In this document: one piece after another, positions 36,556-56,204 of the stretch
Layout: every line of letters starts with the position of its first letter
How positions within the stretch are numbered: the stretch's first letter is position 1
Source of the DNA: an uncultured Actinomycetes bacterium
GTDB taxonomy: Bacteria; Actinomycetota; Thermoleophilia; UBA2241
Direction: 5' to 3'
Length of the DNA: 64,000 bases
Assembly: GCA_963767005.1 (NCBI GenBank)
Contig: CAVYCN010000019.1
Span: forward strand, 108,080 to 172,079
Position numbers and translations under genes: made by a program
The notes under the pieces: model-generated
The model's database searches: none
Told to the model about the DNA's origin: nothing
Seen by the model: only the letters and a program-made list of their open reading frames with translations

Positions 36556-37605
<1,050 letters not shown>

Positions 37606-37652
37606 CAGGCTCACCGCCGCACCCCCGCGCGTGTCGATGCGACCCGCACGGC

Positions 37653-38513: not shown

Positions 38514-38534
38514 GGTCAGCTCCCTCCACTCAGT

Positions 38535-39359
38535 TCACTGCGCCGACGGTGGCCCGAAGCCGGCGCCGGCCAGCAGCGCCTGGGCCTGCGATCCAAGCAC
38601 GAACGCCATGAACTGCTGCGCGGCCGTCGCGTTCTTGGTCGCCTTGACGACCGCGATCGGGTAGCTCGCCACCGCCTGCGCGGCGGCAGGCAGGCCGATC
38701 GTCGTCACCTGGCTCCCGGCGCTCCTGGCGTCGGTCACGTACACGAAGCCCGCGTCGGCGTTCCCCGTCGACACCGACGTCAGGATCGAGGTCACATCGA
38801 GCGCCTCGGAGGCGACGTTCTTGAGGACCTTGCCCGAGTAGCCCACGCCGTACAGCGCGTCGAGGTTGCCCAGCACCGTGCGCGTGTACGTGCCGATCGG
38901 CACCGTCGCGTCGCCGATGACGAGCTTGATGCCGGGCGTGGTCAGGTCGCGCAGCGAATGGATGTGCGCCGGGTCGCACGCCGGCACGACCACGACGAGC
39001 TTGTTGGTGGCGAAGGTCCGCGGCGTGTCGATCAGGCCCTTGCCGGCGAGCTTGGTCCCGTACTTGGTGCTGGCGCCGGCGAAGACGTCGGCCGGCGCGC
39101 CCTGCTCTATCTGGGTGGTCAGGGTGTCGGTGCCGGCAAAGTTGAAGGCGAACGCCACGCCCGGGTGAGTCTTCTGGAAGTCCGCCGCGATCTGAGGGAA
39201 GACCTTGTTCAGCGAGGCCGCAGCGAACACGGTGAGCTTGACGGGGCTCGCGCTCGCACCCGAGCCCGACCCGGATGAGCCGCAGCCAGCCGCGATCAGG
39301 CCGACGGCGAGCACGAGCAACGCGATGAGAGCGTGCAGGACTGGATGCTTGACTGGCAT
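38535..39359 (-). CDS. modA: Molybdate ABC transporter substrate-binding lipoprotein (second copy)
   Basis: Lipobox: MPVKHPVLHALIALLVLAVGLIAAGCGSS. Core: TVFAAASLNKVFPQIAADF...FNFAGTDTLTTQIEQGAPADVFAGAS...DAGFVYVTD...YPIAVVKAT. ATG 39359 is preceded by GGAGGG. Confidence 0.85.
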   Translation of the reverse strand: MPVKHPVLHALIALLVLAVGLIAAGCGSSGSGSGASASPVKLTVFAAASLNKVFPQIAADFQKTHPGVAFAFNFAGTDTLTTQIEQGAPADVFAGASTKYGTKLAGKGLIDTPRTFATNKLVVVVPACDPAHIHSLRDLTTPGIKLVIGDATVPIGTYTRTVLGNLDALYGVGYSGKVLKNVASEALDVTSILTSVSTGNADAGFVYVTDARSAGSQVTTIGLPAAAQAVASYPIAVVKATKNATAAQQFMAFVLGSQAQALLAGAGFGPPSAQ

Positions 39360-39446
39360 GAAGACGGTCCCTCCTAGCGCGCAGTCCGCGTCGCCCCCAA
39401 AGGGGCCGGCCGGCGCCCGATCTGACGTCGGCGCCACGGCCGCGCG

Positions 39447-39470: not shown

Positions 39471-39504
39471 CGGACGTCAAACGCCGGGCCGCCCCGCCGC
39501 GGCG

Positions 39505-40390
39505 TCACCGACCCACGAGGCCAGAGAGGGCCGCGGGGAGCTCGGCGCGCGGCACGACGACGTCGGCGGCGTCGCGCGCGGCGGCATCGCCCTCGACCAC
39601 GGCGATCCCGAGGCCGGCCCAGCGCAGCATGCCGGCGTCGGGGGCGCCGTCGCCGCAGGCGACGGCGCCCGCCGGCGACACGCCGAGCCGGGCGCACAGC
39701 CGCGCCAGGGCCCCGGCCTTGTCGGCGGCGGGGTGGTGCACCTCGTAGCGGCCGCCGGGCGCGGGGCTCACGGCCACGTCCGGACGTCCGAGAACCAGCT
39801 CGTCGAGCAGGCCGACGAGCTTCGACGGCACCCCGCCGACGACCAGCCGCGTCACCGCGACCCCTTCGAGCGCCGCTGCCAGGTCGGGCTGCACACGTGT
39901 GGTTGCGCGCGGAGCCGAGCGTCGCGCCCGCGAGCGCCGCGACCGACCGCGTGCTCACGAACGAATCACGGCGCGCTCGCCTCGCCGGCATCCCGTCCGC
40001 GTTGATCTCCTGCTCCCAGCGCGCGTCGTCGACGTAGGCCGTGACCGAGGCGCCGGCACGAAGCAGCGCCGCGGTGAGCGCGGCCGCGACGCCGGGCGGC
40101 AGGTCGAGCCGCTCGAGCCAGCGGCCGTCGTCGAGGTCGGCCAGGACGGCGCCATGGTAGGCGATGGCGTAGCCGCCGGCCAGCCCGAGGCGCTGCGCCC
40201 CCGCGCGAGTGGCCCCGACCGTCCGTCCTGTGCACAGGACGATCCGCAGGCCCGCCGCGCTCAGGGCGGCGAGCGCCGCGACGATCCCCGGATACGGCTC
40301 GCCGGCCTCGTCGACCAGCGTGCCGTCGAGGTCGCAGGCGGCCAGCGCGTGCGCGCCGGTCGGCCCCTCGGCTCCGCCGCCCGCGCTCAC
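39505..40390 (-). pseudogene. HAD-superfamily hydrolase, Cof-type (subfamily IIB) phosphatase, one frame break near 39900
   Basis: Reads LAACDLDGTLVDEAGEPYPGIVAALAALSAAGLRIVLCTGRT and, in a second frame, HPAADKAGALARLCARLGVSPAGAVACGDGAPDAGMLRWAGLGIAV. GTG 40390 overlaps the upstream stop (GTGA). Confidence 0.75.
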
Positions 40391-41562
40391 GGCGCGGTCT
40401 CGAGTACCCGCCGCGCGACGAGCACGGCCGGCTCCCCGATAAGGCGCTCGACCGTGGCGGCCAGCGCCCGGGCCGCTCCCAGCCGGGCGCGAGCCGCGGC
40501 CTGGCCGTCGGGCTGCCCGTCGAGGTCGCGCAGCTTCGCCGCGAGGCGCTCGTCGAGGTCGATCACGACCGTGCCCCGGAGCAGCTTGTCGGCGAGGTAG
40601 AGCACCTCTGCCTCGCCGGGCAGCGGGTCGGGCGACGGCGTCAGCGACCGCCCCTCCCTCTCATTCTCAGCCTCTACCTGAGCGTGAAGGTCGATGTGAC
40701 GGGCGACCAGGGGCGCGAGCCGGCGATAGCCGAGCTCGCGCAGCCGCGCGGCGCCGGCGGCGGCGTGATCAGGCTGCAAACGGGCGATATCGTGGAGCAG
40801 CGCTGCGGCCAGCAGGAGCTCCGTCTGCAGGCAGAGTCCGTGCTCGTTCAGTCGCCGCGCGAGCGTCATTGCCACGGCCGCGACCGCCCGCGAGTGGTCC
40901 ACGACCGCCGGCGGCAGGCTCGCGTCGGCGAGGAGGTCCAGGCAGCGCTGCTCGTCGGGCAGCACCTCGAAGGCGACCTCGTCGCGGGCACGGCTGTAGT
41001 CGGCCGGCCGGTCGAGGTCGATCAGCGTGCCGGGATCGCCTGTCTCGACCTCGAGGGCGGCGGCGTCATGGGAGCCGAGCAGGTCGCGCAGCCCGCCGCG
41101 CGGCTCGTCGCCCAGGTCGGCAGGCAGACTGGCGCGGGCGATCAGCGGCGGGTGGCCGCGGCGGCCGGCGAAGACCGGATAGACCACCGGCGCCGGTCGC
41201 GCGAGCGCGGCCCGGGCGAGCCGCCCGACCGTCTCTGAGCGCACGAGAGCGCAGTCGACCGGCAGCAGGAAGACGCGCTCGACGCCGGCGTCGAGGCTCG
41301 CGAGGCCGGTGGCGACCGACGAGAACATGCCGCGCCGCCAGTCGGGGTTGAGGGCGGTCGGCACGCCGAGCGCCTGCGCGGCGGCGGCCACCTCGTCGGC
41401 GCGCCAGCCCACGACGACGCGCACGTCGTCGATGCCGACTCCGGCAAAGACGGCGACGGCGCGGGCGAGCACGCTGCTCTCGCCGAGGGGCAGCAGCGGC
41501 TTGAGCTCGCCCATGCGCGACGAGCGGCCGGCGGCCAGCACGACGGCGGCGAGCCGGCTCAC
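40387..41562 (-). CDS. MobA/MocA-like molybdenum-cofactor nucleotidyltransferase fused to an HD-domain
   Basis: From GTG 41562: SRLAAVVLAAGRSSRMGELKPLLPLGESSVLARAV...LLPVDCALV (MobA-like NTP transferase), then HSRAVAAVAMTLARRL...LLAAALLHDIARL (HD). It forms the intact C-terminal part of track ORF 40387-42909. Confidence 0.8.
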   Translation of the reverse strand: MSRLAAVVLAAGRSSRMGELKPLLPLGESSVLARAVAVFAGVGIDDVRVVVGWRADEVAAAAQALGVPTALNPDWRRGMFSSVATGLASLDAGVERVFLLPVDCALVRSETVGRLARAALARPAPVVYPVFAGRRGHPPLIARASLPADLGDEPRGGLRDLLGSHDAAALEVETGDPGTLIDLDRPADYSRARDEVAFEVLPDEQRCLDLLADASLPPAVVDHSRAVAAVAMTLARRLNEHGLCLQTELLLAAALLHDIARLQPDHAAAGAARLRELGYRRLAPLVARHIDLHAQVEAENEREGRSLTPSPDPLPGEAEVLYLADKLLRGTVVIDLDERLAAKLRDLDGQPDGQAAARARLGAARALAATVERLIGEPAVLVARRVLETAP

Positions 41563-41603
41563 CGAAGGACGACTCCCGCGGCACTGGTCGCCGTCCCCAC
41601 GGC

Positions 41604-42650
41604 CTAGCTGCCCGCGCCGGCCCGCACCTGGATCATCTCGGCCACGATGCTGACGGCGAGCTCGGCCGGCGTCTCGGCGCCGATCGGCAGGCCGATCGGC
41701 GCGTGCAGGCGAGCGAGGTCGTCGTCGCTGAAGCCCTTCGCGCGCAGAGCCTCGGCGATGCGCCGCACCTTCGTGCGGCTGGACATGAGGCCCACGTAGC
41801 GCGCCGGCGTACGCAGCGCCTGCTCGAGCACGGTCACGTCGTGCGTGTGGCCGCGGGTCACGATGACGATGTAGCTCTGCTCGTCGACCGGCCGGCGCGA
41901 GAGGACAGCCGTCGAACGACGCGATCAGCTCGACCTGGGCGCCGGGGAACCGGTCGGGCGCGGCGAACTCCTCGCGGTCGTCGAGCACGAGGACCCGCCA
42001 GCCGGCGTTCGCCGCCACCGGGGCGAGCGGCGCGACCGACGTGCCCGGCGCCGCAGATGATCGCCGTGAGCCGGCGGATCGAACGCCTCGACCACGACCT
42101 CGCGAGCCGTCGGGCAGACGCGGCCGTGCCGTGGCATGGCGATCTTGCCGACGGTCTTGCGCAGCGTGCCGGCGTCGCACGGGGCGGCGCCGACGACCGT
42201 GCCGTCTTCGTGCAGCAGGCAGTGCTCGACGGCGCCGCCGTCGGCCGCCGGCAGGACGGTGAACAGCCAGGCGCGCCGGCGCGCGGCCTCGGCCGCGCGC
42301 ATCGCCTCGCAGACCTCGGCCAGCGTCGGATCGCCGGGCGCCATGTAGGCGATCAGCACCTCGGCGCTGCCGCCGCAGACCATCTCGTCGGCGCTGTCGA
42401 CGTCCCTGCCGCGCAGGCGAAAGGCCGACGTCTCGGAGCGACCGCGGTCGAGCACCTCGGCCGCCTGGCGCATCATGGTGGCCTCGAGCAGGCCGCCGCC
42501 GATCGTGCCGGCGATCGAGCCGTCGCGGCGCACCAGCATCTCGGCGCCGGCGGCGCGCGGCGTCGAGCCCTGGTCGCTCACCAGGCGCACCAGCGCCAGG
42601 TCGTGGCCGGCCCGCAGCTCCGCCAGCACCTCGTCGACGATCTCCCTCAT
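41604..42650 (-). pseudogene. XdhC/CoxI-family molybdoenzyme maturation factor, at least 3 frame breaks
   Basis: Starts MREIVDEVLAELRAGHDLALVRLVSDQGSTPRAAGAEMLVRRDGSIAGTIGGGLLE. Continues TAIICGAGHV, VAANAGWRVLVLDDREEFA, and VTRGHTHDVTVLEQALRTPARYVGLMSSRTKVRRI...PIGLPIGAETPAELAVSIVAEMI. Breaks lie near 42075, 42035 and 41885. ATG 42650 overlaps the upstream stop. Confidence 0.8.
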
Positions 42651-44038
42651 CTGACCTCTCTCGTGTCGTTTCCGTCTGCGGCCCGTTGTGACGGGCCGCG
42701 TCGCTCGTCGAGCAGGCGCCGCTTGGCGGTGCCGTCGCCGCCGCTCCAGGGTGGCTCGGCCACCGTGACCGCGACGTGCAGCCGCCCGCTCGCACGGGCG
42801 GCGGCGAGCGCGGGCGCGCGCTCGAGGGCGGCGGCGGCGCGGCGGCAGACCGCCGCGCCGCCGCCGCCCTCGAGCGCGATCTCGACCGCAAGCCGCTCGC
42901 CGTCCTCATCGTCGCCCAAGCGCGCCCGAAAGTCGAGCACGCCGGGAAGCGCGAACAGCGCCTCGTCGAGGTCGGCCAGGGCGAGGCGTCCGCCGCCGGG
43001 CAGCGGCGCGACGTCGGCCAGGCGCGCCCGCACCGGCCCGAGACGGCGCAGCGCCGAGCCGCACGGGCAGGTCCCGGGCAGGAGCCGCCCCAGGTCGCCG
43101 GTGCGGTAGCGGATCAGCGGCATGGCCTCGCGCGTGAGCGTGGTGAAGACGACCTCACCCTCCTCGCCGTCCGGCAGCGGCCGTCCGCTCGCGGGTTCGA
43201 CCACCTCGAACAGCAGGTCGGCCGCGCGCAGGTGCAGGCCCTCATGCGCCTCGCACTCGACGCCGCCGCCGAGCCCCGTCTCGGTCGTGCCGTAGTGGTC
43301 GAACACGCGGCAGCCCCACGCCTGCTCGATCGCGGCCACGAGCGCACGCGGCGCCTGGTCGGTGCTCAGCAGCACGGTGCGCGGCGCGACCGCCCGGCCC
43401 GCGGCCGCGGCGCGCCGCGCCAGGGCGAGCACCTGCACGGGGATGCCGACGACGACGGTGACCCGCTCGCGCTCCAGATGGTCGAGCGCGTCGCCTGCGT
43501 CGTGCACCGGTCCGTGCAGGACGGGCGTCGCGCCGAGGCGTTCCAGCCCGAGCCGCAACAGGTCGCCCACCCCGCCGGGCCGCTCGTAGGGCAGCAGCAC
43601 ACCGACGCGGTCGCCGGGCCGGGCGAGCACCGACATCCCGTGACAGAAGAAGTCGACGGTGAGCTCCAGGTCGGCGACGCTGAAGCGCAGCCGCTTGGGC
43701 GGGCCGCTCGTGCCCGACGTCGGCAGGCTCACGATGCGCTCGACCGCGGTCGCCGGCACGCAGAGCATCCGGTCGCCGTGCTCGCGGATGTCGGCGGCCG
43801 TCGTAAACGGCAGCGCGGCGAGGTCGTCGAGCTCGAGGCTCGCCGCCTCGACCCCGGCGAGTCGCGTGGCGTAGAAGGGACTGCCGGCCTGCGCCAGGGC
43901 GACCGTCACGCGCAGGGCCATGCGCTGATGGCGGCGCATGGCCACGGGGTCCAGGAGGCCGTCCGCGATGCGCTCGAGGGCGCCGCCGGCAGCGGCCGTC
44001 CCGGCCGCACGCCGCCGGCGGCGCGAGCCGCAGCCCAC
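42647..44038 (-). CDS. Adenylate-forming ligase of the phenylacetate-CoA ligase / coenzyme F390 synthetase (PaaK-like) family
   Basis: Reads PTSGTSGPPKRLRFS (AMP-binding P-loop), DHYGTTETG, IRYRTGDLGRL. Intact at 463 aa. The start is uncertain within the first ~35 codons. Confidence 0.75.
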   Translation of the reverse strand: MGCGSRRRRRAAGTAAAGGALERIADGLLDPVAMRRHQRMALRVTVALAQAGSPFYATRLAGVEAASLELDDLAALPFTTAADIREHGDRMLCVPATAVERIVSLPTSGTSGPPKRLRFSVADLELTVDFFCHGMSVLARPGDRVGVLLPYERPGGVGDLLRLGLERLGATPVLHGPVHDAGDALDHLERERVTVVVGIPVQVLALARRAAAAGRAVAPRTVLLSTDQAPRALVAAIEQAWGCRVFDHYGTTETGLGGGVECEAHEGLHLRAADLLFEVVEPASGRPLPDGEEGEVVFTTLTREAMPLIRYRTGDLGRLLPGTCPCGSALRRLGPVRARLADVAPLPGGGRLALADLDEALFALPGVLDFRARLGDDEDGERLAVEIALEGGGGAAVCRRAAAALERAPALAAARASGRLHVAVTVAEPPWSGGDGTAKRRLLDERRGPSQRAADGNDTREVR

Positions 44039-44063
44039 GCGTCGAGCGGCGTGAGCCGGACGC

Positions 44064-45593
44064 TCACGTCCGCCCGCCGGCCAGCCCGCGCCCGCGCGTG
44101 TCGGTCAGGTTGAAGGCGCAGAACGGCAGCAGCACGCCGTCGGTACGCATGACGTGCAGGTAGCAGTGCGAGAGCCGGTCGAGATCGAGCGTCCAGGCGT
44201 CCTGGAAGGCCATGCCGCTCAGGCTGAACGTGTTGCCGCGCACCTGGCGCAGGATCTCGTCCCACTCCTCTGACCGGGCGGGGCCTTCGACGCCCGGCTG
44301 GTCGGCGGCAACGCCCGAGCGGTCGGCCGCGACGCGCGGCGGCGTCGACCAGCGGCCGGCGACGAGCGCCGCCTTGCGCTCGGGCGCAAGCGCGTCGCCG
44401 GAGCCGCAACACGACGACGAGGGCGTCGTCTCGGCCGGCGCCGGCGTGCAACAGGATGACGCGGGCGCGGCGTCGACCTCGGCCGGCGCGGGGCCGCAAC
44501 ACGAAGATGAGGGTTGCGCTTCGACCGCAGCCGGCGCGGGGCCGCAGCACGAGGCGGGCTCGTGGCGGCGCAGCCGCACGAGGCGGCCGTCGGGCCGGCG
44601 CAGGTACTCGGCCTGGAACGAGCAGAGCGCGTGCTCGCAGTCGCCCGGCCTGAAGTCGTCGAGCGCGATCGCGCCGCGCGACTGCTCGACCAGGGCACGC
44701 ATGACGTCGGGCAGGGTGACGCGGCGCTCGTCGTCGGGCCGGAAGCGACCGTCGTAGCGGCCCAGGTGGGCGAGCGGCTGCACATGGACGCCGCGCACCA
44801 CGGGCAGGTTCGCGAGGGCGAAGTCGAGGATCGCCCCGAGGGCGTCGAGGTTGACCCCGGCGGCCACCGTCGGCACCAGGACGACGCCGAGGCCGGCCGC
44901 GCCGCAGGCCTCGATCGCGCGACGCTTGTCGGCGGCGAGCGGGGCGCCGCGCAGCGCCAGGTACGGCGCGTCGTCGAGCCCGTCGAACTGCAGGAAGACC
45001 GTCGAGAGGCCGGCGGCGGCGAGGGTCGCGGCGTAGCCGGGCGCGCGCGCCAGGCGCAGGCCGTTGGTGTTCAACTGGATGAACGAGAAGCCGTGGTCGC
45101 GACCCCGGGCGACGATCGCCGGCAGGTCGTCGCGCACGGTCGGCTCGCCGCCCGAGAGCTGCACGTTGCAGCCGGGCGCCGTCTCGACCAGGCGGCGATA
45201 CCAGTCGTCGACCGTGGCGAGGCTCGGATCGCCGTCGGCGACGCCGGCGGCCGCATAGCAGACCGGGCACGACAGGTCGCAGCGCGCCGTGACCTCGAGC
45301 AGGACGCAGCACACCCCCTGGGCGTGCTCGGTGCAGGTGCCGCAGCTCGCCGGGCAGGCGGCCGGCGCCGGGTCGACGGGGGCGCCGGCCGCAAGGCCAC
45401 GCCACGCGTCGTAGTCGGGAGGTCCACGCCAGATCAGCGCCCGCGTGACGCCGTGCTCGGGACAGCGGCGCTCGAGGTACACCTCGTCGCCGGCGCGGTC
45501 GAGCCGCCCCGGCACGCGCGCGAGGCACACCGGGCACACAGTCGCCGTCGAGCCGGCGAGGACGCCGGTCGCGGAGGCACCGCGGCAGGTCAT
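44064..45593 (-). CDS. Radical SAM protein (COG1964-like: N-terminal zinc ribbon, C-terminal FxGMxFxDxW...PFCxxN region) carrying an internal 4x SCC Cys-pair repeat
   Basis: From ATG 45593: VCPVCLARVPG...RCPEHG. Radical SAM cluster motif: TARCDLSCPVCY. Then NVQLSGGEPT, FIQLNTNG, FSLSGMAFQDAWTLDLDRLSHCYLHVMRTDGVLLPFCAFN. Insert: EPASCCGPAPAAVEAQPSSSCCGPAPAEVDAAPASSCCTPAPAETTPSSSCCGSG. Intact at 509 aa. Confidence 0.8.
   Translation of the reverse strand: MTCRGASATGVLAGSTATVCPVCLARVPGRLDRAGDEVYLERRCPEHGVTRALIWRGPPDYDAWRGLAAGAPVDPAPAACPASCGTCTEHAQGVCCVLLEVTARCDLSCPVCYAAAGVADGDPSLATVDDWYRRLVETAPGCNVQLSGGEPTVRDDLPAIVARGRDHGFSFIQLNTNGLRLARAPGYAATLAAAGLSTVFLQFDGLDDAPYLALRGAPLAADKRRAIEACGAAGLGVVLVPTVAAGVNLDALGAILDFALANLPVVRGVHVQPLAHLGRYDGRFRPDDERRVTLPDVMRALVEQSRGAIALDDFRPGDCEHALCSFQAEYLRRPDGRLVRLRRHEPASCCGPAPAAVEAQPSSSCCGPAPAEVDAAPASSCCTPAPAETTPSSSCCGSGDALAPERKAALVAGRWSTPPRVAADRSGVAADQPGVEGPARSEEWDEILRQVRGNTFSLSGMAFQDAWTLDLDRLSHCYLHVMRTDGVLLPFCAFNLTDTRGRGLAGGRT
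44400..44560 (-). repeat. In-frame tandem coding repeat (four copies, period 42-48 nt) encoding S-C-C-(G/T)-P-A-P-A units
   Basis: The reverse complement of TCxTGyTGC (Ser-Cys-Cys) occurs at 44406-44414, 44448-44456, 44496-44504 and 44544-44552. The 23-nt string gccggcgcggggccgca(a/g)cacga is repeated at 44482-44504 and 44530-44552. Confidence 0.8.
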
Positions 45594-46015
45594 GGAGCGA
45601 GCAGGCCGCGCGCCGCGAGCAGCTGGGCGGCCTCCTCGTAGGTACGGCTCACGATCGCCGGGCAGGTCGTGAAGCGCGCCATGGGGTCGCCTTTCAGGAT
45701 GTCGTCGCACTCGAGCGTGCCGTACTCGTCCTCGAACCACTCGACGAGCTGCCTGGTGAGCTCGCCGTCGACCGGCGCCGAGCTGCGCAGCGCCATGGCG
45801 AGCAGGCCACCGGTGAGCGCGCCGCAGGTGCGACCCGCGAACAGGCCGAGGCAGAGCGCACCCACGGCGTCGACCATCTGGGCGTTCTCGGCGCCGGTCT
45901 CGTCGAGCGCCATCTGCACCATGATCTGCGTGCAGCAGCGCCCGGACAGGCCGAGCTCGTTCACGCGGCGAGCCACGTCGTCGCTGGCCGGCCGACCGAG
46001 ACTGCCGTCGCTCAT
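45590..46015 (-). CDS. C_GCAxxG_C_C family small redox-active protein
   Basis: Reads LSGRCCTQIMVQMAL...LGLFAGRTCGALTGGLLAM...YGTLECDDIL...FTTCPAIV. This matches the C-GCAxxG-C-C cysteine pattern. 141 aa, with ATGA overlaps at both ends. Confidence 0.75.
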   Translation of the reverse strand: MSDGSLGRPASDDVARRVNELGLSGRCCTQIMVQMALDETGAENAQMVDAVGALCLGLFAGRTCGALTGGLLAMALRSSAPVDGELTRQLVEWFEDEYGTLECDDILKGDPMARFTTCPAIVSRTYEEAAQLLAARGLLAP

Positions 46016-46749
46016 GTCGCGTCCTCTCCTCTTCGCACCGTGCGTCCGTCGCAGCGGGCGACACACAGATAGTAGCCGAGACCACCCCCGCCGCGCAGCA
46101 CTGCCGGCACGGTCGTACGGGCGCTCGCCGTAGCCGCATGGGCGCTCGGCGCGCGCGTGCCGAGCGCGCCGCTGCCGGCCAGGTCCCACACCAGCCGGGC
46201 GAGCACGCTCGAATGGTCCTCCCACGCCTCGACCACGAACCCCCGCTCCGTCAGCAGGCGCCGCGCGGCGTCGGGGTCGCGGCGCCGGAACAGGTCGTTC
46301 ACGAGCAGCCGGCCGCCGGGGCGCAGCACGCGGACCCACTCGGCGACGGCCGCGCCGGGGTCGTCGAGGAGCGACAGCACGCACTCGGCAAGGACGGCGT
46401 CGACGCTCGCGTCGGCGAGCGGCAGGCGCGCGGCGGAGCCCTCGCGCAGGTCGAGGCCGGGACAGCGCTCGCGTCCCTGCCGCAGGAGCGCCGCCGACAC
46501 GTCGACGCCGACGACGCGCAGGCCGAGGCGGTGAGCGAGGTGCTCGGCGGTGACGCCATCGCCGCAGCCGACATCGAGCACGACCGCGCCGCGCGGCAGG
46601 CGGGCCAGAGCGAGGCCCCGCTCGGTCAGCTCGAGGCCGCCGGGGTGGCGACAGCCGCCGGTCAGACCGGGCAGCCCGTCGCCCACACAGACCAGGGGCG
46701 CCGTGAGCCCGCAGCCGACCCCGGCGGACGTCGCCCCCGCACCGCTCAC
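46012..46749 (-). CDS. Class I SAM-dependent methyltransferase with Cys-rich N-terminal extension
   Basis: From GTG 46749 (GTGA overlap): ...GVGCGLTAPLVCVGDGLPGLTGGCRHPGG. Then motif I VVLDVGCGDGVTAEHLA, VVGVDVS, and LRPGGRLLVND. It forms the intact C-terminal part of track ORF 46012-47064. Confidence 0.75.
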   Translation of the reverse strand: MSGAGATSAGVGCGLTAPLVCVGDGLPGLTGGCRHPGGLELTERGLALARLPRGAVVLDVGCGDGVTAEHLAHRLGLRVVGVDVSAALLRQGRERCPGLDLREGSAARLPLADASVDAVLAECVLSLLDDPGAAVAEWVRVLRPGGRLLVNDLFRRRDPDAARRLLTERGFVVEAWEDHSSVLARLVWDLAGSGALGTRAPSAHAATASARTTVPAVLRGGGGLGYYLCVARCDGRTVRRGEDAT

Positions 46750-47552
46750 CGCTGGCGCGCTCCCGCGCTGCGCCGCTCGGTCTCCGCCGCGCCCGTCCGC
46801 GGGCAGCGGCAGTAGACCTTGCGCACGTAGGGCTTCATGCCCGGCGTCGCGGCGCCGTGGCGCACGACCCGCTCGATCATGGTCGCGTCGATCGGCACGA
46901 TGCCGGCGAGCACGTCGACCGGCAGGTGCGAGAAGGCCTCGGGCACGAGCGGCGTGCTCGGCCCCAGCACCAGGGTGCGGACCCGCGGAGCGGTCGCCGC
47001 GAGAAGGTCTTCGATGCTGTCGTTCAGGATCGCGGTCGCCGTCACGATCAGCGCGTCGGCCCACGAGCCGAGCAGCCCGCGGAAGCGTGCGGGGTCGCCC
47101 ATGCCGAGCGACGAGTCGATCACCTCGAGCTCGGCGCCGAGCCCCGGCAGCGTGCCGGCGAGCGGCGGGAAGTAGCCCACCATGCAGACGCGCGTGCCGG
47201 GCCCGATCTCGAGCAGCCGCAGCGAGCGCGACAGCGGCATGCCGCCGTCGTCGTCGAAGCCGCTCGCGCGCTCGCGGTTCAGGGCGTTCACCGTCGCGAG
47301 GCCGATGCTGCGCTGGAACGGATCGTCGCTCAGCAGGCGCTCGAGCAGCTCGGCGGCGGGCTCGCCTTCGACGTCGTGGTAGTGATTGGCGAAGGAGCGG
47401 GTCTCGCGGCCCTCGAGCCAGGTGAACGACAGGCCCAGGCCACCGTCGCCGGTCGTCACCACGGTGTAGCCGAGGCCCACGGTGAGCGCCGTCACCGTGG
47501 TCGCCTGAGCCAGCGGCAGCGCGGTCTCGTAGAGCCGTTGCGTCAGCAGCAT
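46746..47552 (-). CDS. DUF4213/DUF364 (putative heavy-metal chelation, Rossmann-like) domain protein
   Basis: Reads MLLTQRLYETALPLA...VGLGYTVVTTGDGGLGLSFT...GLATVNAL...RVCMVGYFPPL...DALIVTATAILNDSIEDLL...VLGPSTPL. That pattern and the ~270-aa size fit the DUF364 family as I remember it. Intact. Confidence 0.6.
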   Translation of the reverse strand: MLLTQRLYETALPLAQATTVTALTVGLGYTVVTTGDGGLGLSFTWLEGRETRSFANHYHDVEGEPAAELLERLLSDDPFQRSIGLATVNALNRERASGFDDDGGMPLSRSLRLLEIGPGTRVCMVGYFPPLAGTLPGLGAELEVIDSSLGMGDPARFRGLLGSWADALIVTATAILNDSIEDLLAATAPRVRTLVLGPSTPLVPEAFSHLPVDVLAGIVPIDATMIERVVRHGAATPGMKPYVRKVYCRCPRTGAAETERRSAGARQR

Positions 47553-47559
47553 CGGCCGC

Positions 47560-50131
47560 TCACTTGTCCTCGAGCGCAAGTTCGACCTCGCGCATCTGGC
47601 CGGTGGCGAGCTCCTCGGAGACGAGGGCGAGGCCGTGCTCGAGGCAGGTCGGCAGCGTCACCGGAAAGCCGGCCACCAGGTACGAGAGGCTCACCGTGCG
47701 CGGCTCGAGCTCGTGGTCGCCGGCCGCGCAGCGAAAGCGCGGCCGCTCGTCCGGCTCGAAGGCGGCCAGCTCGGGCCAGGGCGGCGGCACGACCTCCATG
47801 CGATGGCTGTAGGCGCTCACGACCTCGAAGCGCTCGCCGGCCGCGGCGTACTCCACCCAGTAGGTCACGCGACCGATCGTGCGAAAGCCGAGCAGCCGGC
47901 CGGTCGCCGGGTCGGCGAAGCGCCGTCCCGTGGCCTCGGAGTGGGCGATCACCTGATGGACCTCTTCGGGGCGGATGAAGCGCTGTTCGAGCAGGTCCTC
48001 GACTCTCGGCCGAGATGCACGAGCCGCTCGCGCCAGGCGCCATCGCTCGCGCCTGCTCGCCCCAGAGGTCGGCCAGCAGGCGGCGCTTGAGGAGCGCGCG
48101 CGCCTCGGCCCGCTGCGTGAGCAGCGGGCCGCGGCGCCGCGCGCGCTCGTCGTAGTCGTCGCCGAAGAGCAGGTCGAGCAGGTGGACGGTCGGCTTGCCG
48201 CGCTCGACGAAGCGGTCGCGGCACATCGCGCAGTAGGCGAGAAAGTCGGTCTCCGACGTGCCCACGCGACGGTCGGCGATGAGGTCGGCCATCTCGCGGT
48301 TCGCGTAGAGCTGCAGGCCGCCGAAGCCGCAGCACTCGGTGCGCTCGCGCGACAGGCCGAGCTCCTCGATCTCCGCACCGCAGGCCGCGAGCAGCTCGCG
48401 CACGGCGGCCTGCACGCCGGTCTGGTAGCGCGCCGTGCAGGAGTCGTGCACGGCCAAGCGGCGCCCCGCCGCCGCGCCGGCCGCGCCGGCCGGCAGCCCG
48501 ACGTCGCGCAGGACCTCCCACAGGGACACCGTCTCGATGCCGGGCAGGTGGGCCGCGAAGACCGTCTCGCAGGTCGGGCAGGCGAGGATCACGCGCGGCG
48601 TGCCGAGGCTCTCGAGCTGCGCGCGCAGGCCGGCCAGGGCGGCGTCGAAGACGCCGCCCTGGCCGGCCCAGTCGGCCGGCGCGCCGCAGCAGTTCAGCAC
48701 CAGGCCGGTGGCCGGCGAGAAGCGCTCACGCAGGTGGGCGTAGACCCGTTCCACGCTGCGCGAATCGGAGGCCGCGAGCTGGCAGCCGGGAAAGAACACG
48801 GCCGCGCTCGCCTGCGTGCCCGGTGCGTGCCGCGCCAAGGCGAACTGGTCGCTGCGGGCGAGCTCGAGGTCGCGCAGCGCGCCGTCGAAGTGCGACGCCG
48901 GCATGCGCCCCTGGCGCACCATCTCGCGGCGCGCGTCGTGGGTCACCTCGGCCATGTCCAGGTCGGTCGGGCAGACTTCGTAGCACAGACGGCACATGCT
49001 GCACGAGTCGATCATCTTGTTGAGCGAGCGCGTGCCGCGGCCCATCGTGACCGTGAGGTTGTTGTAGATGCGGCGCGCGTACAGCCCGGGGTGCGCGCCG
49101 AAGGCCTCGAGGTAGGGGCAGACCTTGACGCACTGCAGGCACTCGCACTGCAGGCAGCGCGCGGCCTCGGCGACGGCCTCGGGACGCGAGTAGCCGGCGG
49201 CCGGGTCGGCCGGCTCGGCCGGCGCCCGCGGCTCGACGCCGTCGAGCTTCACGACCATGCGCGTGCCGTACGAACCGAAGTCGCCGCGCGAGCCGCCCAG
49301 CGACACCCGCTGGAGCTGCCGCTCGATCGACAGGGCGGCGCGACGGCCGTCGGCGATCGAACCGATCGGCGACCACGGCCCGTCGGGCCGTAGCATGCTG
49401 CCGCCGCAGTAGATGTCCGGTTTGCTGGTCGCCAGGGTGACGGGGTCGACGGCGATCCGTCCCTGCTCGTCGAGCTCATAACCCAGGGCGGCGCCGGCGT
49501 CGGCCTCGGCCGTGCCCATGGCCACGAAGATAGCGTCGACGCCGGGCGCGAGCTCAGCGAGGGCGTTGGGCTTCGTAGGGTACTCGAGGGCCACCCGCGT
49601 GAACGGCACGAACTCGGCGCCCGCCGCCATGACCACGGCGCAGTCGGCTTCGAGCTCGGCCGCCGGCAGGGCCTCGCCGGCAAGCTCGCGAGCGCGGCCG
49701 CCGGGACCGTCGCGCTCCTCGAAGATCACGACCGAGTAACCCTTACGGGCGAGCTCGTAGGCGCAGGACAGGCCGGCCAGACCGGCGCCGATCACGGCGA
49801 TGCGGCCGGGCTTCTGGCGACGGAACGTCGTGGCGGGCTTGGGCGGCTCACCGTAGGCCACGGCGGCGCGCTCGATGTCGCGCACGCGGATCGCGCCGCC
49901 CCGCTCGCCCCGCACGCAGGCCGCCTCACAGGGCGCGTCGCAGCAGCGCGCGATGACGTGCGGGAAGGGCACGGCCTGCGTGAACAGCCGGCGAGCCTCG
50001 GCGAAGCCGTCCCGTGCCGCCGCCGCCAGCAACTCCCTGGCGTCGACGTGCACCGGGCAGGCCGTCACGCAGGCGGCCGGCTGGTTCTGGATGCACTGCT
50101 CCTCGAGTTGCAGCAGCCTCTTCTGGTCCAT
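47560..50131 (-). pseudogene. Large multidomain redox protein: GltD-like FeS/FAD-NAD(P) module + 2x[4Fe-4S] + two CCG (HdrB/GlpC-like) domains + unknown C-terminal domain; one frame break near 48000-48050
   Basis: Reads CVTACPVHVD...FPHVIARCCDAPCEAAC, RIAVIGAGLAGLSCAYELARKGYSVVIFE, CLQCECLQCVKVCP...CSMCRLCYEVCP, FFPGCQ...VLNCCGAP, VHDSCT...TECCGFGG. The C-terminal ~150 aa (RVEDLLEQRFIRPEEVHQVIAHSEATG...ELALEDK) lie in the frame of ORF 47560-48378. Confidence 0.7.
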
Positions 50132-50154
50132 GACACATCCACTGTTACAGACAT

Positions 50155-50195
50155 GGCCGGCCGGCGCACCTCCCGCGGGGGCACGCCGGCCGGCC
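50155..50195 (-). terminator. GC-rich hairpin between mop and the downstream redox gene
   Basis: GGCCGGCCGGCG (50155-50166) pairs perfectly with CGCCGGCCGGCC (50184-50195). The 17-nt loop itself contains CCCGCGGG. Confidence 0.4.
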
Positions 50196-50297
50196 GGAGC
50201 GCCGGCCGCCTGGCGGCGGCCGGCGCGGACTTACCGTGCCGCCGATCGACTTCGTCGTCGGCGCTCAGGCATGCGCGGCTTCGCTGCGTGCCTCGCC

Positions 50298-53039
50298 CTA
50301 GAAGGCCTGGATGTCGCGGTCCTTCATCGCCGCGAGGACCTTCTCGGGCAGGGCCGGCAGGTGCCGTACACGAGCCCCACAGGCGTCGTCGATCGCGTTG
50401 ATGATCGCCACGTGCGGAGCGGTGAGCGGCGCCTCGCCGCAGCCCGATGCGCCGTAGGGGCCGAGCGGCCGCGGCGTCTCGAGATACAGCACCGTCAGGT
50501 CGTCGGTGACGTCCTTCGGGTAGGGGATGCCGCAGGCCCGCATGTTGGTGTGCTTCTTCAGGTCCTCGAAGTCCTCGGTCAGCGCGAGACCGATGCCCTG
50601 CGAGAGGCTGCCCCACATCTGGCCGTCGACGTTCAGCCGGCTGTTGATGACGCCCACGTCGGTGCAGATCAGCAGGTGGTCGACGTAGGTCTTGCCGGTC
50701 GCCTCTTCGACCGAGACCTGCGACATGAAGACGCTGTACATCCAGTTGGGGATCGGATGGCCCTGACCGGTCTTCGGGTCGATGAGCACGCCCATCGTCT
50801 GGGTCCAGTTGCCCTCGTAGCGCAGGTCGAGGCCCTCGGCCACCATCTCGTCGTGGGTGCGGTAGGTGCCGTCGCCCTTGGCCATGGCGGCGATGAGCTT
50901 CTCGCAGGCGTCCTTGATGGCGTTGCCGACCAGGACCTGCGAACGGCTGCCGCCGGCGCCGCCGCTGTCGGGGCAGTAGGCGGTGTCGTTCAGGTCGACG
51001 CTGATCTGGTCCATGGCGAGGCCGAGCGGACGCAGCGCTTCGTGCGCCGTGCCGAGCGTGCCGCCGTCGGAGCCCTGGCCGTGGTCCTCCCAGGTGTTGT
51101 AGATGCGCACCGTGTTGTCTGCCCGCAGCTCGGCCGCGGCGTTGGCCACGTCCTCGCCGTCGCCGCCGGCGCCGAAGATGCCGAGCGAGATGCCAATGCC
51201 GCGCTTGATGCCGGCGGGCGCGGGCTCGTCTTTCCAGGCCTTGGCCTTGTCCCAGTAGGGCTTGACCATGTCGAAGAGCTTCTTGAACGAGTAGACCTCG
51301 TACTCCTGGCCCCACGAGTAGGTCGCGCCGGGCTCGGCGAGGTTCCTGTAGCGCAGCTCGAACGGGTCCATGCCCATCTTGCGGGCGAGCTCGTCGACGA
51401 TGCTCTCGCCGGCGAAGAAGGCCTGCGGCGAGCCCCAGGCGCGGAAGGGGGCGCCCCAGCCATGGTTCGTGCGCACCAGGTGGCCGTCGCCACGCATGTT
51501 GGGGATGTTGTAGCCGCCGCCGCAGAGCATGCCCTTCTGCACCAGGTTGTCGCCGAACTCCATGTACGGACCGTGGTCGCACCACCAGTGGTTCTCCATG
51601 GCGAGGAACTTGCCGTTCTCGTCGGCGGCGAGCTTGCAGTGGTACCAGTGCGGCGAGCGCTTGCCGGTGTAGGCGATGCTCATCCAGTAGTCGTACTTGA
51701 GGTAGACCGGCCGACCGGTCGCCATGTGGGCGGCGCCGAGCAGGGCCTCCATCGTCGGGCAGAACTTGTAACCGAAGGTGCCGCCCGTGTTGTTCTGCAC
51801 CATGCGCAGGTTCTCGAGCTCGACACCGAGGCCCTCGTTGATCATCGCCGCGTGGAAGTTCAAGGCCACGCTCTTGGAGTGGATCGTGAGGCGGCCTTCC
51901 TCGTCGGTGTAGGCGAAGCCGCAGTCGGGCTCGAAGTACAGGTGCGGCTGGCGCTGCAGGTAGTACTTGCCTTCGACGACGTGCGCCGCCTTCTCGAAGA
52001 TCGGGTCGGTCTCCTCACCCTTGATCAGGTTCTGGGTGAAGAACATGTTGGGCGTGCCGGGGTAGATGTCGATCGCGTCGTCGGCCATGGCGTCGAGCGC
52101 GTTCATGTACGCGGGCAGCTCCTCGAGCTCAACCTTGACCTTGGGCACCGCGGCCAGCGCCTGCTCGATCGTGGTAGCGCAAACGATCGCCAGGGCGTCG
52201 CCGTACTGGAAGACCTTGGTGTCGCACAGGATCGGGCGCTCCCAGCCGTCGGCCATGACGTCGTCGGGGTACATGACGAGGCCGTTGATACGGTTCTTGC
52301 CCTTGACGTCCTTGTGCGTGACGACCTTGAAGACGCCCGGCATCTTCTCGGCCTCGGACACGTCGATCGAGATGACGTTGGCGTGCGAGACCTGAGCGTG
52401 GACCACGGCGCAGTGCAGCGTCTCGGGGGGCATGCGCAGGTCGTAGTCGGCGCCGTAGAGCATGGTGCCGGTGACCTTGGCGAGGGCCGACGGCTTCGGG
52501 AAACGGGTGTTCCAGATGTGGCCGTCCTCGGGTACCTTGAACGTGAGCTCGTCCTCGCTCATCTCGCCGCGCAGCACCTTGGCGGCGTCGAGCACGGCGT
52601 CGACGAGCGGCTTGTAGCCGGTGCAGCGGCAGACGTTGGCGTGCTTCTGCCACCAGTCGCGGACCTCTTCGCGAGTCGGGTCCGGGTTCTCGTCGAGGAG
52701 CGCCTTGGACGAGACGATGAAGCCCGGCGAGCAGTAGCCGCACTGGGCGCCGCCGTGCAGGATCCAGGCGAGCTGCAGGGCGTGCAGCTTGTCGGGCGTG
52801 CCGATGCCCTCGATCGTCGTGATCTGCGACTCGGCCGGCACGCGCTTCATGGTCGTCGTGCAGGAGCGCACGACCTTGCCGTTCAGGATCACCGAGCAGC
52901 AGCCGCACTGGCCCTGGCCGCAGGCGACCTTGGTACCCAGCAAGCCGACCTGACGACGCAGCACGTCGCTCAGCTTCTGCCTGGGATCGACGATCACGAT
53001 CGTCGGGATCCCGTTGACGTTGATCAGCTTCTTGTCCAT
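50298..53039 (-). CDS. mop: Aldehyde oxidoreductase, Desulfovibrio Mop type (2x[2Fe-2S] + molybdopterin-cytosine-dinucleotide domains, no FAD domain)
   Basis: Intact at 913 aa. Near-colinear with D. gigas MOP as I recall it: VNGIP...GTKVACGQGQCGCCSVILNGKVVRSC...EGIG...LHGGAQCGYCSPGFIVS...CRCTGYKPLVDAV...KDVKGKNRI...PILCD.KVFQYGD...ELPAY...GGTFGYKF...TGKRSP...WEDHGQG...GGSRSQ...GASGCGE...PEKVL. ATG 53039 is preceded by GAGGAG. Confidence 0.92.
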   Translation of the reverse strand: MDKKLINVNGIPTIVIVDPRQKLSDVLRRQVGLLGTKVACGQGQCGCCSVILNGKVVRSCTTTMKRVPAESQITTIEGIGTPDKLHALQLAWILHGGAQCGYCSPGFIVSSKALLDENPDPTREEVRDWWQKHANVCRCTGYKPLVDAVLDAAKVLRGEMSEDELTFKVPEDGHIWNTRFPKPSALAKVTGTMLYGADYDLRMPPETLHCAVVHAQVSHANVISIDVSEAEKMPGVFKVVTHKDVKGKNRINGLVMYPDDVMADGWERPILCDTKVFQYGDALAIVCATTIEQALAAVPKVKVELEELPAYMNALDAMADDAIDIYPGTPNMFFTQNLIKGEETDPIFEKAAHVVEGKYYLQRQPHLYFEPDCGFAYTDEEGRLTIHSKSVALNFHAAMINEGLGVELENLRMVQNNTGGTFGYKFCPTMEALLGAAHMATGRPVYLKYDYWMSIAYTGKRSPHWYHCKLAADENGKFLAMENHWWCDHGPYMEFGDNLVQKGMLCGGGYNIPNMRGDGHLVRTNHGWGAPFRAWGSPQAFFAGESIVDELARKMGMDPFELRYRNLAEPGATYSWGQEYEVYSFKKLFDMVKPYWDKAKAWKDEPAPAGIKRGIGISLGIFGAGGDGEDVANAAAELRADNTVRIYNTWEDHGQGSDGGTLGTAHEALRPLGLAMDQISVDLNDTAYCPDSGGAGGSRSQVLVGNAIKDACEKLIAAMAKGDGTYRTHDEMVAEGLDLRYEGNWTQTMGVLIDPKTGQGHPIPNWMYSVFMSQVSVEEATGKTYVDHLLICTDVGVINSRLNVDGQMWGSLSQGIGLALTEDFEDLKKHTNMRACGIPYPKDVTDDLTVLYLETPRPLGPYGASGCGEAPLTAPHVAIINAIDDACGARVRHLPALPEKVLAAMKDRDIQAF

Positions 53040-53184
53040 AGACCGGCTCCTCTAGAGTCGACAGCAGGCCGCACATTTGCGAAGCGACGAGGCGCGCCAC
53101 AGAGTCACGCCCGCCTGAGCGACGACGACGGAGTCGCGCGACGGCACAGGAACCGAACGCACTGGACGCCGCCTCACCCCACGG

Positions 53185-53215: not shown

Positions 53216-53280
53216 ACACAACGGAGCACGAGTTGGACCGGCAGGCGACGTCACGCTCCCCGCCGGGACATCTTGGCAGA

Positions 53281-56092: not shown

Positions 56093-56204
56093 ACTCATCC
56101 CTCCACGTCCACGGGGAATCACTGCCGCGCGCCTGCGAGCCGCGCGCCTGCGCCGGCGTTCCGGATGAGACCGGGCCGGCGGGCTTGTGGCCCGCTTCGC
56201 AATC

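Follow-up and report, generated by a model that had tools for sequence, protein, structure and literature searches.

The Mop-type aldehyde oxidoreductase has been studied structurally for thirty years, and a set of six to nine genes travels with it across at least eight phyla. In Desulfovibrio vulgaris Hildenborough this set is DVU_1551–DVU_1559, in the order mop, a redox protein, DVU_1557, a methyltransferase, a C_GCAxxG_C_C protein, the radical S-adenosylmethionine (SAM) protein TrsS, an adenylating ligase, XdhC and a nucleoside triphosphate (NTP) transferase fused to an HD domain. Here we describe a cluster of the same kind in a 64,000-nucleotide stretch of DNA, hereafter the window, from an uncultured Actinomycetes bacterium (Thermoleophilia, UBA2241; assembly GCA_963767005.1, contig CAVYCN010000019.1, positions 108,080–172,079). 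Judged from its sequence, the cluster is an actinobacterial, all-cysteine version of the conserved DVU_1551–DVU_1559 "TrsS" operon that accompanies Mop-type enzymes. Its families and their order are those of the set beside the D. vulgaris aldehyde oxidoreductase, the syntenic set to which a first-pass annotation of the window had tentatively pointed, and it differs from that set in the fusion of DVU_1557 to the redox protein, the insertion of a DUF364 gene, a Cof-type HAD phosphatase in place of the usual histidine phosphatase, a cysteine form of TrsS with a repeated CC motif, and indels in four genes of the assembly.

The neighbourhood is already catalogued in NCBIfam (NF045645, NF045646 and NF045663–NF045669), and at least TrsS is published, its name being attributed to Haft & Tolstoy 2025 (mSystems) in the review table through which we cite that work (PMC13188914). 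The literature searched yielded no experimental function for the gene set and no mention of DVU1551, DVU1553 or DVU1555–DVU1557, DVU1559 is named in two papers, and a D. vulgaris study by randomly barcoded transposon sequencing (RB-TnSeq) reported nothing on these genes. The association with AFOR-family and formate dehydrogenase (Fdh)-like enzymes, the phosphatase displacement, the exclusive CCG fusion and the EDK terminus described below may or may not already be in Haft & Tolstoy 2025.

Family assignments

Because the window has a G+C content of ~72%, raw lists of open reading frames (ORFs) are unreliable, and the coding frame was therefore traced by third-position G+C content (GC3 plot). 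This trace and the translations agree on ten minus-strand genes in the places given by the first-pass annotation (Table 1), and Pfam and NCBIfam bear out the domains it had called in all of them. The DVU_155x family names that it had put forward are real and fit: among the nine models, seven are matched above cut-off, NF045669 falls 0.5 bit below, and NF045664 is passed by an intact homologue only. Mop scores 1488.9 bits against NF045668 (cut-off 1100), the methyltransferase 183 against NF045667 (155), TrsS 536.1 against NF045646 (490), the ligase 431.8 against NF045666 (300), and the NTP transferase–HD fusion (MocA-HD) 364.3 against NF045665 (315). The C_GCAxxG_C_C protein reaches 102.5 bits against NF045669 (cut-off 103) and 67.8 against PF09719 (cut-off 27). 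For genes with disturbed frames, two ENA metagenome contigs that are 99.2–99.4% identical to the window, ERZ25039473:contig_27498 and ERZ25039480:contig_42566 (hereafter contigs 27498 and 42566), serve as references. The frame-corrected redox protein scores 901 bits against NF045663, "diclust_near_Sec" (cut-off 530), and its last 58 residues (801–858) score 60.9 against the DVU_1557 family NF045645 (cut-off 60); the intact protein of contig 27498 passes both cut-offs. Against NF045664 (cut-off 350), the stitched XdhC sequence of the window scores 341.6 bits and the intact XdhC of contig 27498 scores 351.

Mop itself aligns full-length to PDB entries 1DGJ (1175 bits) and 1VLB (1156 bits). It shares the architecture of D. 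desulfuricans MOD and D. gigas MOP, to which these entries belong, with two [2Fe-2S] domains, domains binding the molybdopterin cytosine dinucleotide (MCD) cofactor and no flavin adenine dinucleotide (FAD) domain, although its host is an actinobacterium of 72% G+C, unlike Desulfovibrio. The Mop protein is identical in the two reference contigs.

Conservation across phyla

A genome scan with the TrsS alignment returned 582 relatives, and the best 80 loci, chosen by similarity to the window TrsS, were examined; gene presence was scored by tblastn with the intact proteins, and 55 loci had full flanks after correction for contig ends. The best 80 of the 582 loci span at least eight phyla (Actinomycetota, Chloroflexota, Bacillota, Desulfobacterota, Acidobacteriota, Nitrospirota, Spirochaetota and Pseudomonadota). 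A mop gene is present in 54 of the 55 full-flank loci, in keeping with the earlier expectation that the set keeps company with mop-type genes in other genomes. Among the same loci the ligase is found in 54, the redox protein in 53, the methyltransferase in 50, the C_GCAxxG_C_C protein in 49, XdhC in 36 and the NTP transferase–HD protein in 31. The nine accessory genes that the first-pass annotation treated as one conserved unit do not form such a unit: DUF364 (9/55) and the Cof-type HAD phosphatase (4/55) are lineage-specific, and DVU_1557/DUF7479 belongs to the core, hidden in the window as the C-terminal domain of the redox protein. All six core genes are colinear on one strand in 44 of the 53 loci that contain them, and the order in the window is the majority order; in Proteobacteria, MocA-HD lies between the C_GCAxxG_C_C gene and TrsS.

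The tie to Mop drawn from the window stands for the full-flank TrsS loci and fails as an exclusive one, since the module also flanks AFOR-family and Fdh-like molybdopterin enzymes. In loci L048 and L069, TrsS, the ligase, and either the C_GCAxxG_C_C protein or the methyltransferase lie beside an Fdh-like MopB enzyme, together with a 160-residue protein that consists of the last 84 residues of NF045663 followed by DUF7479. Searches started from these 160-residue proteins revealed three contexts beside an AFOR-family enzyme with an AorA-like subunit (L086/L087, L088/L089 and L090), in which the accessory proteins score above their NCBIfam cut-offs (TrsS 631, ligase 484, methyltransferase 209, C_GCAxxG_C_C protein 159.5 and DVU_1557 90 bits). 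The N-terminal flavin, Fe-S and CCG part of NF045663 is missing from the AOR- and Fdh-type loci and the 84-residue domain and DUF7479 persist; electron transfer is represented there by AorA, by Fer4_22 with NAD_binding_1, or by separate HdrABC/FlpD-like genes (L086). In L090 and L086, MoeA and a tungsten-cofactor radical SAM maturase lie in between the genes of the module. The smallest set to recur, in L088 and L069, is DUF7479 with TrsS and the ligase. The AOR- and Fdh-type contexts together amount to five or six distinct loci.

The redox protein and its DUF7479 tail

The redox protein contains Fer4_20, a GltD-type FAD domain, a 4Fe-4S dicluster, CCG, the 84-residue domain and DUF7479 (Pfam). 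The dicluster (Fer4_17, 46 bits) is followed by CCG (43.3 vs 20.6 bits), which is the HdrB/HdrD-type layout, and disulfide reductase activity is predicted from it. The N-terminus matches NfnB/GltD-type modules in a PDB sequence search, including fusions with molybdopterin enzymes (9N5U, 9BOV and 8OH5), and the protein also matches YgfK and AegA in NCBIfam. The earlier description of this gene as a redox protein of ~857 residues is right in domains and place; the 862-residue ORF found there is frameshifted, and its last ~150 codons are read in the wrong frame.

The 84-residue domain always occurs before DUF7479 or at the end of CCG proteins. A profile search of 1.84 billion representatives gave 1150 proteins, with the domain C-terminal in all of them, and among the matches listed all 51 proteins that bear DUF7479 end in EDK. 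Across the TrsS loci, the final residues of DUF7479 before the stop codon read [L/M]-E-[D/E/G/N]-K in 79 of 79, exactly LEDK in 75, with lysine always the last one. The cysteine pairs of the ribbon, CxxC...CxxC in most phyla, are not invariant and are degenerate in the Actinomycetota forms, where two of the four cysteines are lost. In an AlphaFold2 (AF2) model of the 84-residue domain with DUF7479 (pLDDT 89), a helix-sheet domain is followed by a β ribbon and a terminal helix that ends in the lysine; a fold search with this model gave no PDB match with E below 0.4.

In most phyla DVU_1557/DUF7479 is a separate small ORF. Of the 69 TrsS loci in which both it and the redox gene occur, 64 have it immediately behind the redox gene. 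Fusion with the redox protein is seen in eight loci, of which six belong to Actinomycetota. Readthrough at the junction of the separate genes was considered and rejected: the in-frame stops mix TGA, TAA and TAG and most loci change frame, so these are separate genes and not a case of recoding. Ten architectures in which DUF7479 is fused or forms a C-terminal domain were scanned with Pfam. Eight of them have a recognisable partner, in every case of CCG/Hdr type, and seven include CCG itself; the remaining one (P0198) shows Fer4_20, FAD and dicluster domains but gives no CCG match, and the two others (P0160 and P0276) have uncharacterised N-termini. No fusion of DUF7479 to the ligase, TrsS, the methyltransferase or Mop occurs among these ten.

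Ligase, TrsS, methyltransferase and C_GCAxxG_C_C protein

By a direct reading of its sequence, the ligase has retained the PaaK-type fold in full, with the C-terminal GxAKR lysine, and its closest structure is PaaK (4R1L, E=2e-33). It scores 121.5 bits against PaaK model TIGR02155 (cut-off 646) and 148.4 against NF041878 (cut-off 700), and thus shares the fold without being a member of these families. It accompanies TrsS in 78 of the 80 loci.

TrsS residues 15–318 match the tetraether lipid enzyme GDGT-MAS (7TOL) with E=1e-67, and the C-terminal third differs. Against the Tes model NF045702 TrsS scores 298 bits (cut-off 450), with only residues 16–335 aligning. NCBI names the family "(seleno)protein", and the window TrsS is the all-cysteine form. 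It carries a low-complexity, lineage-specific insert (~44388–44561, minus strand) with a vicinal-cysteine repeat in four copies (SCCGPAPA, SSSCCGPAPA, SSCCTPAPA and SSSCCGSG); only one SCC(C) motif stands at this site in most homologues, and the unrelated homologue P0111 shows a similar expansion. Selenocysteine (Sec) in TrsS was sought in the segment of 140 residues upstream of MAFQDAW across the 80 loci and rejected, the only TGA codons being those of the frameshifted L017 and L073 at the invariant G307; the truncated homologue P0113, considered as a Sec stop, is likewise a frameshift. Some TrsS proteins of 735–792 residues (P0005, P0019 and others) additionally carry a C-terminal DUF5714 with a zinc ribbon and a GxCGxxxG motif, and a relationship of DUF5714 to the C_GCAxxG_C_C protein was dismissed (hhalign probability 4.6%).

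In an alignment of 68 methyltransferase homologues, E122, C123, G37 and G38 are fully conserved and P36 is conserved in 98%; the RPGG motif opens with Arg in 82% of them and with His in this lineage. The invariant Glu-Cys presumably corresponds in position to the "NC" cysteine of ArsM-type enzymes. The cysteine-rich N-terminus remarked on earlier is present in the window protein, but its cysteines are not conserved in the family. In the C_GCAxxG_C_C protein C28, C64, C103 and C118 are invariant among 57 homologues, and the window protein has all four; a PDB sequence search with it gave no match.

Cofactor genes and phosphatase

The XdhC protein has both XdhC_CoxI and XdhC_C domains (Pfam). The NTP transferase–HD protein scores 103.7 bits against the MocA equivalog TIGR03310, below the cut-off of 186.45, and its cytidylyltransferase role is a prediction from sequence. 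Both proteins share domains with the described maturation factors XdhC/PaoD and MocA; they differ in forming separate NCBIfam families (NF045664 and NF045665) and in the fusion of the MobA-like transferase to HD. The pair also occurs with TrsS and the ligase in L022, where no mop gene lies within 10 kb.

The HAD protein passes the HAD-IIB model TIGR01484 (63 bits, cut-off 41.8) and scores 85.8 bits against the Cof-type model TIGR00099, below its cut-off of 137. A histidine phosphatase follows the ligase or MocA-HD in 32–34 loci, and the HAD gene of the window occupies the same slot; the one example scored, from L022, passes the CobC model (169.7 vs 162.9 bits). The HAD looks like a non-orthologous replacement for a phosphatase on which the system really depends. 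The DUF364 protein has no NCBIfam match. Its family has been linked in the literature to molybdate/tungstate transport operons, and from their sequences DUF364 and the adjacent modABC genes would be local molybdenum-handling additions.

Proposed function and alternatives

Additional chemistry on the cofactor or on the enzyme, which the first-pass annotation took the gene combination to imply, is a candidate reading among several. We propose that electrons from Mop leave through the Hdr-like redox protein, that the ligase, TrsS and the methyltransferase, with the C_GCAxxG_C_C protein, act on DUF7479, and that MocA-HD, XdhC and the phosphatase supply the cofactor, and we give this reading a probability of roughly 0.35. 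MocA-HD, XdhC and the phosphatase would provide the cytosine-dinucleotide form of the molybdenum cofactor and insert it into Mop. Electrons from aldehyde oxidation would pass from Mop, which has no FAD domain, to the neighbouring Hdr-like protein with its Fe-S clusters, FAD and HdrB-type CCG thiol/disulfide domains. The zinc-ribbon domain DUF7479, the C-terminus of the redox protein here and a separate protein of ~60 residues in most phyla, would offer its tail as the substrate of the PaaK-like ligase and the Tes-like TrsS, which form an inseparable pair, aided by the DVU_1556 methyltransferase and by the C_GCAxxG_C_C protein as thiol partner. The ligase would attach an acyl group to the terminal lysine and the other enzymes would tailor it, giving a protein-bound redox arm that the CCG domains could reduce and oxidise. 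This logic is borrowed from the synthesis of lipoyl-lysine, the β-lysyl-lysine of EF-P and diphthamide, where a ligase works together with a radical SAM enzyme. Its most specific part, that the ligase, TrsS and the methyltransferase build an unprecedented prosthetic group on the C-terminal lysine, a swinging redox arm cycled by the HdrB-like CCG domains, is doubtful even to us. Were it right, the DUF7479 arm would couple aldehyde or formate oxidation by molybdenum and tungsten enzymes to thiol/disulfide chemistry, and the group would be a new protein-borne cofactor, an analogue of lipoyl-lysine, widespread in anaerobes.

Several points weigh against this proposal. The AF2 model places EDK at the end of a helix and not in a floppy tail, and we know of no ANL ligase that acylates the C-terminal lysine of a protein. 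The acyl-lysine scheme has no specific need for the methyltransferase or the C_GCAxxG_C_C protein, both of which are absent from L088. In some loci XdhC, MoeA and the tungsten-cofactor maturase stand among the genes of the module, a pattern with which pure cofactor maturation agrees equally well. The 80 loci were chosen by TrsS, so that 54 of 55 measures mop given TrsS and not TrsS given mop. Finally, four genes are frameshifted, so that the copy in the window might be non-functional.

The alternative that survives best, possible although on balance unlikely, is that the whole module serves maturation and tailors or activates the molybdenum or tungsten centre before XdhC inserts the cofactor, either by supplying its terminal ligand, sulfido or selenido, via a Cys/Sec relay held in the reduced state by the Hdr-like reductase, or by modifying the pterin. 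Translational coupling joins XdhC and MocA-HD to the module, MocA-HD lies between the C_GCAxxG_C_C gene and TrsS in Proteobacteria, the module accompanies three unrelated families of pyranopterin enzyme (Mop, AFOR and Fdh-like MopB), and L090 and L086 interleave MoeA and the radical SAM maturase with it. Invariant cysteines in several components and the "(seleno)protein" name of TrsS would suit such a relay. Members of the xanthine oxidase family and formate dehydrogenases require a terminal Mo/W=S; nicotinate dehydrogenase (PDB 3HRD) carries Mo=Se. On the other side, high-resolution structures of Mop from D. gigas and D. desulfuricans reportedly contain ordinary MCD and an unmodified protein, and the D. 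gigas enzyme is reported to work when the sulfido ligand is absent. Neither a cysteine desulfurase nor SelD is encoded in the cluster, and the top 80 loci contain Mop-type genes and not xanthine dehydrogenases, which share the cofactor needs. Maturation also leaves the ligase, the radical SAM enzyme, the methyltransferase and the invariant EDK tail without a role.

That Mop, the tungsten-dependent aldehyde oxidoreductase (W-AOR) or the Fdh-like enzyme feeds electrons from donors of very low potential (aldehyde, formate), by way of the Hdr-like protein and a rubredoxin-like DUF7479, to the radical SAM cluster of TrsS, which with the ligase and the methyltransferase would make an unrelated small molecule, seems improbable. 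It would account for the company the module keeps, two unrelated aldehyde-oxidising families and Fdh-like enzymes and not molybdenum enzymes generally, for the CxxC...CxxC ribbon of DUF7479 in most phyla, and for the presence of a rubredoxin-like domain (Pfam Zn_ribbon_HMPTM) in the TrsS homologue GDGT-MAS itself. A rubredoxin role sits badly with the loss of two of the four ribbon cysteines in Actinomycetota while the EDK tail stays invariant; an abundant catabolic enzyme would moreover be unusual as a dedicated reductant, and no genes for a substrate or product are evident.

A catabolic role, in which Mop or W-AOR makes an acid from a particular aldehyde, the PaaK-like ligase makes the coenzyme A (CoA) thioester of that acid, and TrsS and the methyltransferase alter the carbon skeleton, is very unlikely: the ligase is a complete PaaK-type enzyme, both oxidoreductase families make carboxylic acids, and some loci have genes for aldehyde dehydrogenase and for Fe-alcohol dehydrogenase, but the ligase tracks TrsS and not the oxidoreductase, being present in 78 of 80 loci and retained in the mop-less full-flank L022, its scores lie far below the PaaK cut-offs (121–148 vs 646–700 bits), thiolase, hydratase and transporter genes are missing, and the small cysteine-rich proteins and Hdr-like enzyme are ill-suited to a simple degradative route.

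Integrity of the genes in the window

Four of the nine accessory genes, those for the redox protein, ligase, XdhC and HAD, are not intact ORFs in the window, and all genes are intact in both reference contigs (redox protein 855, ligase 472, XdhC 346 and HAD 295 residues). All 22 indels of the 21.5-kb comparison fall in five short patches within accessory genes, and none in mop, fdhA or modABC. In the redox gene four inserted bases (48005–48051) give a net +1 frameshift, so that an 862-residue ORF (50131–47543) is out of frame over its last ~150 codons and the real C-terminus lies in the frame ending at 47560. Two inserted bases (43971–43973) break the ligase frame near its 5' end, and one insertion and one deletion at 42846–42849 balance each other. 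XdhC has six 1-nt insertions (41904–42136), leading to a premature stop at 41925, and the HAD gene has five deletions and three insertions (39900–39986; net −2). On the GC3 plot and three-frame reading the coding frame shifts without a stop at ~48050 in the redox gene, three times between 42140 and 41900 in XdhC, and at ~39950 in the HAD gene.

Positions 48250–62000 are identical to contig 42566, and the differences cluster in 41750–48250. Similarity to the near-identical contigs is mosaic, 100% over ~14 kb (fdhA, mop and upstream) against patches of up to 8% divergence in XdhC, the ligase and TrsS, a pattern that points to recombination, or to heterogeneity among strains, in the accessory genes. 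In the one patch that was aligned (41880–42160, in XdhC), the window alleles often match those of an 80%-identical relative (L004), so the substitutions are real polymorphisms; the six insertions of that patch are unique to the window. Genes elsewhere are broken as well: an MttB-like methyltransferase (8012–9339, minus strand) is split between two overlapping frames covering profile positions 30–264 and 265–435, an Aminotran_4 gene (2241–3073, minus strand) is in two pieces, and a proline racemase (Pro_racemase; 10769–11428, minus strand) lacks the first 110 profile positions. These breaks support a general problem of sequence quality.

From these comparisons, the frameshifts likely arose as consensus errors where a long-read metagenome assembly crosses strain-variable patches, and the apparent pseudogenes of the window are probably assembly artefacts. 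The opposite view, that the frameshifts are real mutations and the cluster of this strain a decaying pseudogene array, is hard to credit. The confinement of all 22 indels to accessory genes, sparing mop, fdhA and modABC, speaks for decay, as do the substitutions in the same patches, which are real polymorphisms common to the 80% relative. Yet every gene is intact in two independent contigs of ~99% identity, the indels coincide exactly with the strain-variable patches, other genes of the window are fragmented too, and six 1-nt insertions within 232 nt, a total divisible by three, are not plausibly mutations when overall identity is 99%. The relatives stem from long-read metagenome assemblies; those named "MFD...bin" we take to be Nanopore metagenome-assembled genomes (MAGs) of the Microflora Danica project.

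Locus organization and neighbouring genes

Table 1. Genes and domains of the locus, with positions in the window.
Feature	Positions	Strand	Basis
Formate-dehydrogenase-like alpha subunit (fdhA), directly upstream of mop	53378..56122	-	Translation, Pfam
mop, intact, encoding a 913-aa molybdopterin (MCD)-dependent aldehyde oxidoreductase	50298..53039	-	NF045668
Hdr-like redox protein, 855 aa in intact relatives	47560..50131	-	NF045663, Pfam domains, GC3 plot
~84-aa domain (VEDLLEQRFIRPEEV...AYSHRMEV) of redox protein	47752..48003	-	NF045663 positions 675-758
DUF7479/DVU_1557-type domain fused to redox protein, ends ELALEDK-stop	47563..47736	-	PF24292 58.5 bits
DUF4213/DUF364 protein, 268 aa	46746..47552	-	PF04016 111.7 bits, PF13938 71.3 bits
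DVU_1556-family SAM methyltransferase, 245 aa	46012..46749	-	NF045667
DVU_1555-type C_GCAxxG_C_C protein, 141 aa	45590..46015	-	NF045669 (0.5 bit short), PF09719
TrsS radical SAM protein, Cys form, 509 aa	44064..45593	-	NF045646
DVU_1553-family PaaK-like adenylating ligase, 472 aa in relatives	42647..44067	-	NF045666
XdhC-family maturation factor, 346 aa in relatives	41604..42650	-	NF045664 (stitched sequence below cut-off)
DVU_1551-family MobA/MocA-like NTP transferase-HD fusion, 391 aa, intact	40387..41562	-	NF045665; Pfam NTP_transf_3 + HD
Cof/HAD-IIB phosphatase, 295 aa in relatives	39505..40390	-	TIGR01484
modABC-type molybdate/tungstate ABC transporter, directly downstream of cluster	36556..39437	-	Domains in near-identical contig; ModA-like translation

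Six 4-nt overlaps link genes of the cluster (GTGA 46746–46749, ATGA 46012–46015, ATGA 45590–45593, GTGA 44064–44067, ATGA 42647–42650 and GTGA 40387–40390), including all five ATGA or GTGA overlaps listed in the first pass; that at 44064–44067 couples the TrsS stop to the true ligase start, GTG at 44067, and the intact ligase gene of contig 27498 likewise has a 4-nt overlap. A scan for consensus promoters and terminators found none inside the cluster. The G+C content steps from ~68% over fdhA and mop (50000–56000) to 74–77% over the accessory genes and modABC (36000–50000). Between fdhA and mop lies a perfect 21-bp GC-rich hairpin without a T-tract (53280–53330, minus strand), followed by an untranslated spacer of ~240 nt; the hairpin may be a terminator without a U-tail that splits two transcription units. 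Downstream, the modABC genes are recognised by SBP_bac_11, BPD_transp_1 and ABC_tran+TOBE domains in the near-identical contig.

The FdhA-like protein has Fer2_4, NADH-G_4Fe-4S_3, Molybdop_Fe4S4, Molybdopterin and Molydop_binding domains (Pfam), and its gene contains an in-frame TGA (55037–55039, within ...IDHCART*HAPTVAGL...) at the canonical selenocysteine position; gene callers cut the gene into pieces of 350 and 549 residues. This codon indicates that the organism uses Sec, though its TrsS and C_GCAxxG_C_C proteins are cysteine forms. An Fdh-like gene lies upstream of mop in 9 of the 55 full-flank loci.

The sole riboswitch, a molybdenum cofactor (Moco) riboswitch (RF01055, 58.5 bits) at 56400–56524 with a promoter-like site just upstream, was considered as a regulator of mop and rejected: it lies on the opposite (plus) strand and serves a divergent operon. 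That operon (56684–62860, plus strand) encodes four proteins without an NCBIfam match, two of them with faint Oxidored_molyb signals, followed by a substrate-binding protein/ATP-binding cassette (SBP/ABC) transporter. The window and contig 42566 carry the riboswitch operon where the sister contig 27498 differs upstream of fdhA; the latter has there (2300–6614) a second xanthine-oxidase-family gene (764 residues), a DsrC-family protein and cysteine desulfurase fragments. Farther off (11804–13843, minus strand), a homologue of the MtmB-like monomethylamine methyltransferase, 461 residues in a single ORF without an amber codon, stands beside a B12-binding corrinoid protein, an unusual pairing for a high-G+C actinobacterial MAG.

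Comparison with known systems

To the described operon the window adds a fused, cysteine-only actinobacterial member with DUF364 and HAD additions, and otherwise little. The wider comparison shifts the question from exotic Moco chemistry to a concrete one, the invariant-lysine domain beside or within an Hdr-like module, which is testable in D. vulgaris.

The N-terminal ~320 residues of TrsS are homologous to Tes and GDGT-MAS (7TOL), comprising the ribbon, the radical SAM barrel and the auxiliary cluster region. The C-terminal third of TrsS instead has the SCC motif and MAFQDAW...C..H...PFC, and the genomic context of Tes is lipid synthesis, whereas that of TrsS is the operon of a molybdenum or tungsten enzyme. 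Some databases label TrsS proteins "tetraether lipid synthase" or "pterin dimethyltransferase", which could mislead surveys for producers of lipid biomarkers.

With the Hdr-type modules (HdrB/HdrD, DsrK with DsrC, and FlxABCD-HdrABC) the redox protein shares the dicluster and CCG beside a flavin/Fe-S module, and a small dedicated partner. It differs from them in fusing all of these parts into ~760–860 residues, and DUF7479 is unrelated to DsrC, its invariant terminal residue being lysine and not cysteine. The systems that build lipoyl-lysine (LplA/LipA, serviced by E3), modify EF-P (EpmA/EpmB), make diphthamide (Dph2/Dph5/Dph6) or use the zinc-ribbon carrier LysW have no sequence relationship to this one, and the window ligase is of the ANL type. 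By analogy, the parts list may be likened to theirs: a ligase that adenylates, a radical SAM enzyme and a methyltransferase, together with a small domain that has a single invariant residue, and an attached disulfide oxidoreductase.

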